Below, piece by piece: positions 13,752 to 59,143 of a stretch of DNA of 64,000 nucleotides; the stretch's first letter is position 1, and each line of letters starts with the position of its first letter. Position numbers and translations under genes: made by a program. Source of the DNA: Octopus vulgaris (Eukaryota). The notes below the pieces were generated by a model. It saw only the letters and a list, made by a program, of their open reading frames with translations. It had not been told where the DNA came from and did not search any database. Location of the stretch: the NCBI GenBank assembly GCA_951406725.2, contig OX597814.1, positions 55,862,001 through 55,926,000 on the forward strand, written 5' to 3'.

Positions 13752-14149
13752 TATTGTAGTATTTTGGGGTGGTTATTGTTTTTTTTTTTTGCTTTTTTTT
13801 TTGCCAAATAAACACACGCACTATATAGTCGTACTTCACCCATTTATTACTATTCTTATTTTAACTCGTATCCATTGTCCAGAAATCTTTTGTCACACAT
13901 CTGTGACCTCTTCAGCAACACTTTTCATCCTCATGTGTGCTCCTGCTCTGCTTAGTCCATTCTCTAAGCAAAGCAGGAGCACACATGAGGACAGAAAGTG
14001 TCACTGAAGAAGTCACAGATGTGTGACAAAAGATTTCCAGACAATGAGTTACAATAAGAACAGTAATAAATGGGTAAAGCACCACTATATAGTGCGTGTG
14101 TTTATTTGGCAGAAAAAAAAAAAAAAGACCACCCCGAAATACAACAATA
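13752..14149. repeat. ~400-bp foldback palindrome, each arm with a hammerhead-like motif
   Basis: Arms of ~200 bp meet at cttag-tccattct-ctaag (8-nt loop 13956-13963). CTGAAGA-stem II-AAAA-GATT-TC occurs at 14004-14037 (+) and 13882-13915 (-). Confidence 0.92.
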
Positions 14150-14642
14150 CAAACACAAACACACACACACACACACACGTAGATACATATATATACATAC
14201 ATACAGACTTTCTCTCTATCTCTAACACACACACACACACACAGAATTTTGTCTATTTAGAGACAAAGAATACAGAAACGTTCAATACTCTCTGGTATCA
14301 GAAGTGTGTGCAATCTACTGTATGTTCATCATATGATACATTGATAACTTGAATGATTTTTAAAGAGTACTCAGTAAGCTTCAAGAAGGTTGCCTAGTCT
14401 CTTATGTCAAGTGTCATTCATCTTGCATCAGGAGGGTTGCCTTAAAGTTCATTCCTACTCAATCTGCTAATGAATACAATCTATGATAAAAGGTCAATTG
14501 CCTGATACCTTAAAGTAAGTATATGTATTCCTCTTTAACATATGACAAGCATATAAATATAAGTATGTATGTATGAATGTATGTATGTATGTATGCATGT
14601 ATGTATGTAGTGTAGTGTAGTGCAGTACAGTGCAGTGCAATG

Positions 14643-14900
14643 CAGTGTAAAGCCAAAAGTTTTGCAATATTTTGGTAACTTATTTACTTTATTCGTCAAA
14701 CGTTACAGCAAAAATAGGCTCACATTCAAAGTAGAGGCTATTGTGTTGCACCATCAAAAGCCACCTTTCTGCCAGTTCTTTGAACCCACACTGCTATTAG
14801 TTCTTGTCCTCTGAGGTAAAGAATTCCTTCACTGAAACTTCTACTCCCACCTCTTCTTGGTTGATGAAGCATTATGAGACCAGGTAATAAGCCATAAGTG
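14643..14900 (-). mobile_element. Truncated mariner 3' end
   Basis: Minus strand reads FINQEEVGVEVSVKEFFTSEDKN**QCGFKELAERWLLMVQHNSLYFE (mariner C-terminus), followed by a TIR-like end near 14643. Confidence 0.7.
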
Positions 14901-14932
14901 TGTGTATGTGTGTATATATATACATATATATA

Positions 14933-15311
14933 TTGTAGTACTCCATTGGTTACAAGGAGGGTTCCAGTTGATCTGATCAACAGAACAGCCTGCTCATGAA
15001 ATTAACTTGCAAGTGGCTGAGCACTCCACAGACACATATACCCTTAATGTAGTTCTTGGAGAAATTCAGCGTGACACAGAATGTGACAAGGCTGGCCCTT
15101 TGAAATACAGATACAACAGAAACAGGAAGAAAGATTGAGAGAAAGTTGTGGTGAAAGAGTACAGCAGGGTTCGCCACCACCCCCTGGTGGAGCCTCGTGG
15201 AGCTTTAAGTGTTTCTGCTCAATAAACATTCACAACACCTGGTCTGGGAATTGAAACCGCGATTCTACAACCACGAGTCCGCTGCCCTAACCACTGGGCC
15301 ATTGTGCCTCC
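14933..15311 (-). mobile_element. tRNA-derived SINE (family E), well preserved
   Basis: Minus-strand head GGAGGCACAATGGCCCAGTGGTTAGGGCAGCGGAC (A box)...GGTTTCAATTCCC (B box); flanked by microsatellites. Related fragment at ~63830-63930. Confidence 0.8.
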
Positions 15312-15520
15312 GCACACACACACACACATGTGTGTGTGTGTGTGTGTGTGTGTGTGTGCGTTTGTATATGTGTATATATATATATATATACACACACACA
15401 AACGCACACACACACACACATACACACCATACAAATAGATGTCATCATCATATTATGTCCATATTACTATTCGTGTGTGGTTTGAACAAATTTTGCTCTT
15501 CACAAAGTCATGGTACTTAC

Positions 15521-56699: not shown

Positions 56700-56970
56700 T
56701 ACTGGCTATTCAAACAAATCAACCCCAGGAATTTTTTTTTAAGCCTGATTCTTATTCCATTGGGCTCTTTGGCTAAGTTATGGGGACATAAGCACATCAA
56801 CACCAGTTATACAATGGACTTCTTTTCAGTTTCTGTCTACCAAACTCACTCACAAGGCTTTGATTAGCCCGGGGCTATAGTAAAAGACATTTGCCCAAGG
56901 TGCCACGCAGTGGGACTGAACCCACAATCATGTGGGTGGGAAGCAAAATTCTTACCATACAGCCATGTCT
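56700..56970 (-). mobile_element. SINE family A
   Basis: Tail and head motifs on the minus strand. Confidence 0.8.
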
Positions 56971-57029
56971 CAAAAAGTGCTTTTGTAGCTCATATAAGAA
57001 GTCTGTAATTTACCCACTTCTTATGAACC

Positions 57030-57600
57030 TTGATCACCATTCCTCTTCATCTTAGTATAGGCCAATAAGCCTATTGAGCATCAAAACCAATCTGCTTGAA
57101 TCTATCAGTAATAAGCATGTTATTAATCACTTAAATGAAGTTTATTTCCTTGGTTTTCCATGTCATTGCTGATATACTTGTTGTCATCATCTTAGATGAT
57201 GCTCATGTTATTTTCAAAGTATTTAAGAAGGTATGGGCATAGAGGCATAGCATATTTTGTAGACTCTTTTTTTGCCATTAAATCCTTCCTCATGGGAAGA
57301 AGTTTGAAAGTTGCTGTCACTAGTCAGTCTGATATTTATATCAATTTGTTTTAAGAACCACACTCTTCCTGCTGTTTATCAATGATTTACCTGACAAAAG
57401 AATAACATCCTTTATTGACATATTGCCAATGATTTGGCACTTTACAATCTCACCTCTGAGAATATTAAGTACTTAGATTTAGCAGCAGATCTTTCCAGAG
57501 GCCTAACTGGTATAACGTAATGGAGAAACAAATGACTTAGTATATTTACTGCTTCCATGACCAGCCTAGAATATTTCTAGCACTATCATGAAATTCTTGA
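57030..57600 (+). mobile_element. CR1/L2-like RT fragment
   Basis: SYRPISLLS (~57054), KVFKKVW (~57217), TLFLLFINDLPD (~57360). Confidence 0.7.
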
Positions 57601-58978
57601 ACTTCTTTCTATTTTGATAGTTATTCATTTCTGTACCTGCTACAAGTTTCATACAAAAAGCATGTTACCTTAGAATGGCTCAATTGTAATATAAACCCTC
57701 TGTCTATTGTTTTCCAGCAGAATATGTTTTTAATCTCTTCAAATTCAGTGTTAATACTGGCAGTTTCCTTCATCATAATGTTTGCTTTATTTCTTTAATT
57801 ACCATTTCATTTTATTTACTCCTTTATTGCCATCTCAGTTACTATATTTTATTAATCAGTTTTATCACCATTTTATCATATTTCATTAAAATCTTTTGTC
57901 AGTTACTTTTAGTATTTTAAATATGCATGTGTATATAGAGAGAAGTTTTAGTATTAATACCACTCATCATTTTCCCAAAACTTTTTGTATAGAAGTGGCC
58001 TATGTTTTGCTTGAGATGCTTTTGAGTAAGGGAAAATAAAATTAATTTAAGCAATTATGCTTCTTCACAACTTACTTTGGCCTTATGTATAATAAAAGCA
58101 GAAATTAGTATTATTAAAATATCTTTTTTACACTGATTAGGTTTCAGTGTTAGAAACTAATGATTTTATCTCTATTGGGACAGTGAAAGGCAGAATAGGA
58201 AGAGTGTTGAAGAAATTTCCTTGTGATATTTTAGTTAGATTTCTTAAGTGCTTTCATCTTTTCAATGTTGATAAATAAGTAACAGCCTCATAAAAGTGTT
58301 GATTTAATGATAGCAGTAGAAATCAATTCTCTTCTTTTTTTTTCTTTATAGTTTTTGTTTCTTTGCCACAAAAGACACCAGGGAAAATATTACAAGATGG
58401 AGATATAATATAGTGAGAAAATGAAGTAAAATACAATATTCATACTTGAATTATTTATATGTACATGGCAGAATCTCCATGTTGTGTTTCATATTAAAAA
58501 CTGATGTACTTTTAGATGAAATATTTTGAATGCAATATTTTGACAGTATGACTATTTCTTGGCACATTCATTGAAGATGATATCTATGATGTGCATATTA
58601 GATGAAATAATATTTTTTGAAAGAAATATTTTGAAAAATATGGCTGTAGTTTCCTTGGTATCTTGAATGTAGAGGATTATTTAATACTATCATATCATAA
58701 GCCTTCAAAATTTATCTCACTGCTATTTTATGCAACAGCATGTTTGTTTTTAAAAATATTTCTAACAAGCTTTTTGACTTCTAATATATCTATATCTATC
58801 TGTCATCTAAATAAATATATATATATATATATATATATATATATATATATATATGTGTGTATATATATATATATATATATATATACATGTAGCATTACTA
58901 ATAACCAGTTTTTAGAACTTATACATATGCTTTAGAATAAAACTTTAGGTGAGTAGAGAATGTAATGTAAATTAATGA

Positions 58979-59143
58979 ATGACAAGGGAGCTGGAATTGT
59001 GTAATCAATTTGATTAGCTTACAGCTGTTTCTGCTATAAGAAGCAGTGTACTCAAAGCTGAGTTGGAGCCATTAATGGCTCTTACAGCTGAAAAAGCTGT
59101 AAACTAATGCAGTTGATTACAATAATTCCTGTTCTTTTGTCAT
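58979..59143. repeat. ~165-bp imperfect foldback with hammerhead 3' halves
   Basis: atgacaa...gtaatcaa...ttacagctgtttc and gaaaaagctgtaa...ttgattac...ttgtcat are inverted; GAAAC-AGCT-GTA on minus at 59020-59031. Confidence 0.8.

Follow-up and report, generated by a model that had tools for sequence, protein, structure and literature searches.

Hammerhead motifs dispersed in the Octopus vulgaris genome probably belong to the terminal repeats of Penelope-like elements, one family of which carries a fixed A6U core

What are the short hammerhead-ribozyme motifs that lie scattered through noncoding repeats of Octopus vulgaris, and are those with altered cores simply dead? The question is raised by a 64,000-nucleotide stretch of contig OX597814.1 (positions 55862001 to 55926000; 2.80-Gb assembly GCA_951406725.2 with 227 contigs), hereafter the window, which is CpG-poor, has 30 to 38% G+C, and is rich in microsatellites. 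An inspection of its letters alone, the sequence-only reading, had listed ten diverse minimal hammerheads and one half-motif. All ten stretches read as described and belong to genome-wide repeat families, designated here A, B1, B2, C, D, and E. Our analysis makes it quite probable that these are type I hammerheads of minimal form, located in the pseudo-long terminal repeats (pLTRs) of several families of Penelope-like elements (PLEs) encoding a reverse transcriptase (RT) and a GIY-YIG endonuclease, and that the short units are pLTR-only copies, likely arising by nicking of (TA)n DNA and internal-start reverse transcription of uncut RNA.

The evidence for a PLE origin comes from elsewhere in the genome; within the window, tblastn with 11 PLE proteins found no PLE frame, in line with the earlier statement that no RT or GIY-YIG frame could be recognized there. 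A single frame joining a PLE-type RT to a C-terminal GIY-YIG domain was found at two loci outside the window, L280 and L186. Homologues of these proteins, the named ones including molluscs, carry PF00078, PF28514, PF26215, and PF01541, and the CX2-5CxxC linker, a trait of the Neptune clade, was read in both translations. A B-type GIY-YIG query returned 13,777 candidates genome-wide; among 30 fetched loci, 25 had a B hammerhead downstream, with the core CUGUUGA in 20, another U6 core in 4, and a C6 core in 1. Six loci picked for long frames contained open frames of 1,106 to 1,200 residues that were 97 to 99% alike; five of these loci had a hammerhead (pLTR) on both sides, and all 11 motifs read CUGUUGA. 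The B-type master protein scored above the cut-off for RVT_1 and below it for GIY-YIG, and has a CxxxxCxxC linker. A second young PLE family has an intact 811-residue frame (99% alike) and UUGAAAA in 34 of 35 motifs. Moreover, family C (L167) and family D (L170) each provided a locus with an inverted pLTR, a truncated PLE frame, and a pLTR; in 4 of 25 family C loci a same-strand frame immediately preceded the motif, and one family C locus contains a near-full decayed frame. GIY-YIG remnants also stood upstream of a family A copy (L241) and of a U6-core B2 copy (L237). In families A, B2, C, and D the motifs occupy the pLTR behind a PLE frame. The suggestion that the hammerheads are of the minimal type I known from PLEs is borne out, and further PLE traits were seen, namely, partial tandems, an inverted 5′ partner, a tail, and 5′ truncation.

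The members of the 811-residue family (L186, L191, L200, and L201; e.g., L244:1629-4207) often occur as head-to-head pairs, and their hammerhead has the U3-A8 core, a helix II of only 2 bp, and a helix I of 7 bp. An intact 811-residue element at L095 was considered as the master of family C and rejected, being a neighbor with 47 to 55% protein identity to the C-linked frame.

As had been proposed, several independent families are present, and each has its own helix II and palindrome sequence; the helix III palindromes of families A to E are AGAUUU, ACGU, ACCGGU, ACAUAUGU, and ACAGCUGU. In families D and E the helix II region extends to about 55 to 90 bases, and in family D helix I covaries, pairing U-A in 12 and C-G in 5 of 23 copies. 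First-look DNA searches gave lower bounds of at least 2,114 candidates for A, at least 1,316 for B2, at least 3,088 for B1, and at least 1,293 for C. Exact pattern counts over the genome, compared with reversed patterns, were far higher: the B-type pattern with the core left free matched 41,589 times (control, 0), the same pattern with U6 21,773 times (0), the B-type 3′ anchor 20,661 times (0), the 3′ half of family D 4,370 times (11), and that of family E 646 times (1). A canonical short pattern gave 28,108 matches versus 3,916 in its control, and among the first 30 matches all three helices were present in 13, versus 0.44 in a flank-swap control. As a rough sum of partly overlapping pattern sets, these counts suggest a total on the order of 60,000 motifs, and the claim of very many copies, adjoining (TA)n or in fold-backs, is upheld. 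From the B count alone, one motif is expected in roughly every 64 kb; the window therefore does not greatly exceed the genome-wide average.

Two features of the helices stand beside these counts. The family D hammerheads (L136 to L165) have a 53- to 61-base helix II region with inner hairpins, beyond the usual descriptor lengths. The base of helix II in 27 family C copies (L081 to L105) reads A.C in 15, A-U in 10, G-C in 1, and another combination in 1, which suggests a pair in transition.

Most copies in the window had been taken for core-mutated and possibly dead. At the family level, the CUGANGA consensus is present in A and D, and it also occurs in examples of E; family C has U3-A8 instead, B2 departs from it at position 6, and B1 at position 4. 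The core is kept as CUGANGA in 32 of 36 aligned family A copies (CUGAAGA being the window type) and in 15 of the 23 family D copies with a core. At the CpG site of G12, the general base of the hammerhead (PMC6155905), the 36 family A copies read CG in 10, CA in 14, TG in 8, and otherwise in 4, and the window's family A copies have lost G12 by CpG decay. The departures in the other families are of another kind: CCGACGA (U4C) was found in 22 of 24 B1 copies and CUGUAGA (A6U) in 22 of 22 B2 copies, each parsed from 25 loci, and UUGAAAA (U3-A8) in 23 of 27 family C copies. Since these three altered cores are family-fixed and two such core types sit on young intact elements, only copies of A, D, and E can still be taken for mutated and probably dead.

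The A6U core was followed further within the B type. A hand tally of the first 100 listed B matches gave U6 in 62 (two also with C4), C6 in 3, other C4 cores in 18, canonical cores in 15, and U3 in 2; some of the canonical CUGACGA cores could be products of CpG decay of CCGACGA. To our knowledge, A-to-I editing cannot restore the canonical letter from U6 or C4. Conservation was scored at core positions 3 to 6, 8, and 9 in the first 90 of the 20,661 3′-anchor places, 70 of which were in register, while 20 with no or a partial motif or another spacing were dropped. U6 was found in 68 of the 70 copies, and the other core positions were fixed in 67 to 69. In contrast, position 7 takes all four letters (split 29/23/12/6), position 17 is A or U in 68 copies and G in 1, and in the flank a second common state occurs in 21 of 55 downstream columns. 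Inside the A6U motif, variation is confined to position 7, position 17, and two CpG sites, which agrees with the rules of the hammerhead. Contig depths agree, with no second letter above 10% at position 6 and two at position 7. A core register shifted by three bases was rejected because helices I and II are disrupted in it, and the register adopted here is the one in which A6 relatives align. In a tree of 36 B-type rows the U6 clade sits on a long branch and cannot be rooted, so the direction from A6 to U6 rests on the general consensus. A separate observation at L171:1842-3700 is a family-A-related PLE inserted behind a B1 copy, whose motif reads CUGGCGA (A6G) in this one copy; canonical relatives exist.

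The ends of the copies bear on how they were made. (TA)3 lay within 60 bases of the 3′ anchor in 81 of 90 copies, the 3′ ends being fixed at (TA)n; a TATATA run stands at the 3′ pLTR edge of the B-type master, family A has two alternative 3′ ends (the tail), and inverted partners occur. Of the 5′ ends of 89 aligned copies, 33 fell within 19 bases around one landmark, 93 to 108 bases upstream of the predicted cut, whereas 13 lay downstream of the cut, 1 at the cut (within 3 bases), 3 inside the motif, and 18 beyond the landmark. In several subfamilies the landmark contains the word TCAGA or TCAGT, which we take to resemble an initiator motif. Contigs from two presumed RNA runs (X1 and X6) span the 5′ UTR and the beginning of the frame in a full-length element, but the one that crosses the pLTR edge extends past it by about 30 bases, too short a stretch to serve as evidence. 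Because the 5′ ends pile about 100 bases upstream of the predicted cut and not at it, uncut RNA is, to judge from these ends, the likely template. A mechanism can be proposed on this basis. Transcription would start inside the pLTR at the landmark, about 100 bases before the hammerhead, which would account for the pile-up; the element enzyme would nick (TA)n DNA, and the RT would start internally, near the pLTR 3′ edge, on uncut element RNA. The helix III palindrome may let the hammerheads pair up as dimers, with cleavage that is slow or dependent on protein, in which case cutting would not be needed for copying; a demand relaxed in this way could have allowed the A6U core to expand even as selection continued to hold the remainder of the motif. 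Precedents exist: Drosophila Penelope starts transcription in its pLTR (PMC2377424), and an anole element uses an internal RT start on uncut RNA, with a hammerhead that needed protein and was dispensable for insertion (PMC11167929).

There is a bolder reading, to which we give less than an even chance: an active PLE lineage may have fixed A6U and, over four or more sublineages in succession, retained it by selection for catalysis, as a working protein- or metal-gated variant in more than 20,000 copies that is invisible to standard descriptors. The same elements would incidentally shed SINE (short interspersed element)-like units of 200 bases, made when the RT copies uncut RNA from its internal start up to the point where transcription began. 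A number of results weigh against the PLE assignment and the proposed mechanism. The predicted minimum-energy structure was a hammerhead dimer in two of eight examples, both U3-A8, and the B, A, and D examples preferred other pairings. Changes of A6 lower activity in vitro (PMC3088659), and one A6C mutant was more than 10,000-fold less active in 0.3 mM Mg2+ than in Mn2+ (PMC7151607). B1 combines U4C with a helix I mismatch, and no coding frame was linked to B1, in four long copies followed about 7 kb upstream, or to E; the expected link to RT and GIY-YIG frames was found for A, B2, C, and D and not for these two. Stem II and GAAA located the motifs in the 70-copy sample, so that their conservation is partly built in, and both samples, of 90 and of 100 copies, were drawn from the initial 4 to 11 Mb of a single contig. 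Finally, the 5′-end pile-up could have other sources, such as a structure that halts the RT, microhomology of AT sequence to (TA)n, or, as a partial contribution, differences between the copies and the reference.

A plausible rival, to which we would still give less than an even chance, is that cores with U6 or C4 have lost the ability to cut and that the motif is retained as a fold or sequence for the element protein or the promoter machinery or rides along in the masters. The absence of a pile-up at the predicted cut speaks for it, and the conservation of the helix I and II flanks and loop 2 is as expected of a promoter element downstream of the start site; furthermore, hammerhead mutants left insertion unaffected in vitro (PMC11167929), and Naiad PLEs spread without canonical hammerheads (PMC8557442). 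However, the positions that vary freely, 7 and 17, are precisely those expected from catalytic rules, as is the near lack of G at 17 (1 of 70). Moreover, with U6 held constant, position 7 has come to show each of the four letters in lineages about 25% apart.

The sequence-only reading had seen in the short units nonautonomous ribozyme-bearing retroelements. Many short units do exist, but in A, B2, C, and D they are the ends of autonomous PLEs and not a separate class of tandem retrozymes. It nonetheless deserves consideration, if as an unlikely alternative, that the units are independent elements (SINE-like or non-LTR retrozymes), each copy serving as its own source of transcripts and circular RNA as the route of spread. 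Many copies of 190 to 200 bases have similar 5′ ends, B1 lacks a linked frame, one tandem trimer with (TA)n spacers was seen (L055), and retrozymes have been proposed to derive from pLTRs (bioRxiv 10.64898/2026.07.22.740005). On the other hand, 5′ ends range from inside the unit to more than 380 bases, with long copies reaching the 3′ untranslated region (UTR) and the GIY-YIG frame; copies are mostly single or inverted, not tandem; and the 6-bp helix I of canonical retrozyme hammerheads is lacking. In the window there are no tandem arrays of hammerhead units. The trimer, at L055:850-1800, comprises three B2 units 250 to 275 bases apart and was the sole one noticed. The long B1 copies (L232 to L235) have in common a CA-rich upstream sequence of up to about 2 kb in which no frame is recognizable, and B1 may be a long noncoding derivative.

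Chance matches of a loose pattern in AT-rich repeat DNA might be invoked, since no hammerhead family is among the 150 of 183 Rfam matches listed for the window (E ≤ 10; a null that we take to reflect the limit of the Rfam models), relaxed descriptors allowing two mismatches gave 2 matches versus 0.25, and one site had been misparsed, but this explanation is very improbable given the genome-wide counts, the covarying helices, the five different palindromes, and the shared position behind PLE frames in unrelated families, and for A, B, C, and D it is refuted by the exact counts, the family D covariation, the long-frame loci, and the three-helix matches. In the window, a type I descriptor (at most one core mismatch, helix II of at least 4 bp, and a palindromic helix III) yielded 8 matches, five of them previously listed sites, compared with a mean of 1.0 and a maximum of 4 in 12 locally shuffled windows, and on requiring a helix I of at least 3 bp, 2 matches remained versus 0.

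The PLE assignment can now be set out along the window, where six sites (13882, 14004, 23337, 48324, 53740, and 53963) are clear motifs and three (24856, 25187, and 53539) are worn members of long-helix-II families with damaged cores or stems. Two family A pLTR copies form a head-to-head fold-back, 89 to 90% complementary: an inverted arm with the longer 3′ end, or tail (13698..13955, minus strand; hammerhead 13882-13915, core CUGAAGA), and a direct arm with the shorter 3′ end (13964..14152, plus strand; hammerhead 14004-14037), both with G12 changed to A, in the former by CpG decay. A short B1 copy lies between (TA)n runs (23261..23463, plus); its hammerhead (23337-23363) has the family-fixed CCGACGA core and helix I mismatch, with a predicted cut after 23363. 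A family D2 fold-back (24741..25022, plus), of which one relative was examined (L143), contains a worn hammerhead (24856-24943) with a long helix II and the core CUGAAAA, in which C3 faces A8 unpaired. It is followed by a worn family E copy (25187..25385, plus) with a CUGAUGA core, a long helix II region, one change in the helix III palindrome, and weak stems. The family D1 copy ending at (TA)n (30612..30799, plus) has an intact 3′ half (GAAA and an 8-base palindrome, 30737-30752) and a degenerate true core near 30672; here the sequence-only reading was mistaken, for the core that it parsed at 30713 is loop sequence, and the family's real core stands about 55 bases before GAAA. An old family A relative (48300..48365, minus; hammerhead 48324-48354) has a canonical helix II and, at 48354, the only unchanged core in the window, and lacks helix I. 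A second worn family E copy (53480..53634, minus) retains its 3′ half and has a degenerate core. The short B2 copy ending at (TA)n (53680..53870, plus) carries a hammerhead (53740-53775) with the family-fixed CUGUAGA core, 4 bp each in helices I and II, an ACGU palindrome, and a predicted cut after 53771. The adjacent family C copy (53916..54135, minus; hammerhead 53963-53998) has the UUGAAAA core with its U3-A8 pair, an ACCGGU palindrome, and a predicted cut after 53966. The half-motif reported at 59020 is present as described and is a fold-back of an E-type 3′ half with no core (59000..59125, no strand assigned).

Other repeats share the window. Tc1/mariner-type transposase remnants lie at 1569-1964, 16222-17090, and 21105-21998, two with Pfam DDE_3 above the cut-off. 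The segments 39978-40277 and 42650-42949 are 97% alike and 2,672 bases apart, possibly a recent local duplication; their repeat family recurs at 2723, 28257, 38937, 49619, and 62490. A common short interspersed repeat forms an inverted pair (18735-19036 and 47969-48269) with 78 to 84% complementarity. No tRNA gene was found in the window.

The pairing of PLEs with hammerheads is already published; what is new is that young intact elements carry an A6U core fixed in their family and that the 5′ ends of copies pile up upstream of the predicted cut. PLE hammerheads cut poorly and are dispensable in vitro, so why PLEs keep them is the question at stake, and the occurrence of young intact elements with noncanonical cores beside canonical relatives allows a comparison, ready-made in nature, that bears on whether selection acts to maintain catalysis. 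Should A6U prove to cut, surveys that search for CUGANGA are overlooking a large class of hammerheads. The pile-up, in turn, suggests a testable account of where the many short unclassified repeats of such genomes come from. The published literature searched contained no natural A6U hammerhead and nothing on A6U in octopus hammerheads; Lunse et al. and the Terminon paper, outside that search, may list U6 cores. A 2026 repeat annotation of O. vulgaris reports 31 recently active PLE families, and the word "ribozyme" is absent from its main text (PMC13282606).

Among known systems, the closest are the PLE hammerheads of Cervera and de la Pena (PMC4209133), who described their architecture, solo copies, inverted pairs, and U3-A8. 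The octopus motifs share with them the type I form, a short helix I, a palindromic helix III, many families per genome, an extra base between A9 and 10.1 (here in families A and B), the U3-A8 variant, and a predominance of solo truncated copies with inverted pairs 100 to 700 bp apart. They differ in that the consensus there keeps A6, with no U6 or C4 core and no octopus entry in the supplementary passages searched; in the 55- to 90-base helix II region of D and E; and in number, tens of thousands here versus at most about 9,000 there, although the descriptors differ. PLE structure and (TA)n targets are covered by Craig et al. (PMC8557442), and the octopus masters resemble the Neptune/Nematis-type endonuclease-bearing PLEs in that work in the single RT-then-GIY-YIG frame, the CX2-5CxxC linker, the pLTR-frame-pLTR order, the inverted 5′-truncated partner, the tail at one end, and the (TA)n targets. 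This likeness is one of traits, not of a tree, and the B-type master differs in its long proline-rich N-terminal part and the approximately 0.9-kb UTR behind the endonuclease. Like the anole Poseidon element PAc (Frangieh 2024, PMC11167929), the octopus elements have a probable internal RT start, fixed 3′ ends with a tail, AT-rich targets, and uncut RNA as the likely template; PAc, however, carries a canonical core that has been assayed in vitro and needs no homology for priming, whereas the TATATA run at the octopus pLTR 3′ edge would allow pairing with a (TA)n target. Non-LTR retrozymes (PMC7229834; reviewed in PMC6765202) are likewise short noncoding units with type I hammerheads, reaching 120,000 copies in axolotl, but they form tandem arrays with canonical hammerheads and circular RNAs, unlike the dispersed PLE ends with minimal hammerheads seen here. 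Finally, the natural core variants known, U3-A8, A6C in phage Bcep176, and U4C in a viroid (PMC3088659, PMC7151607), show the same kind of change, altering positions 3/8, 4, or 6 in an otherwise intact core. They are known from single or rare sequences, whereas A6U, not named in the section of these sources that was covered, is in the octopus the majority state of a large family.

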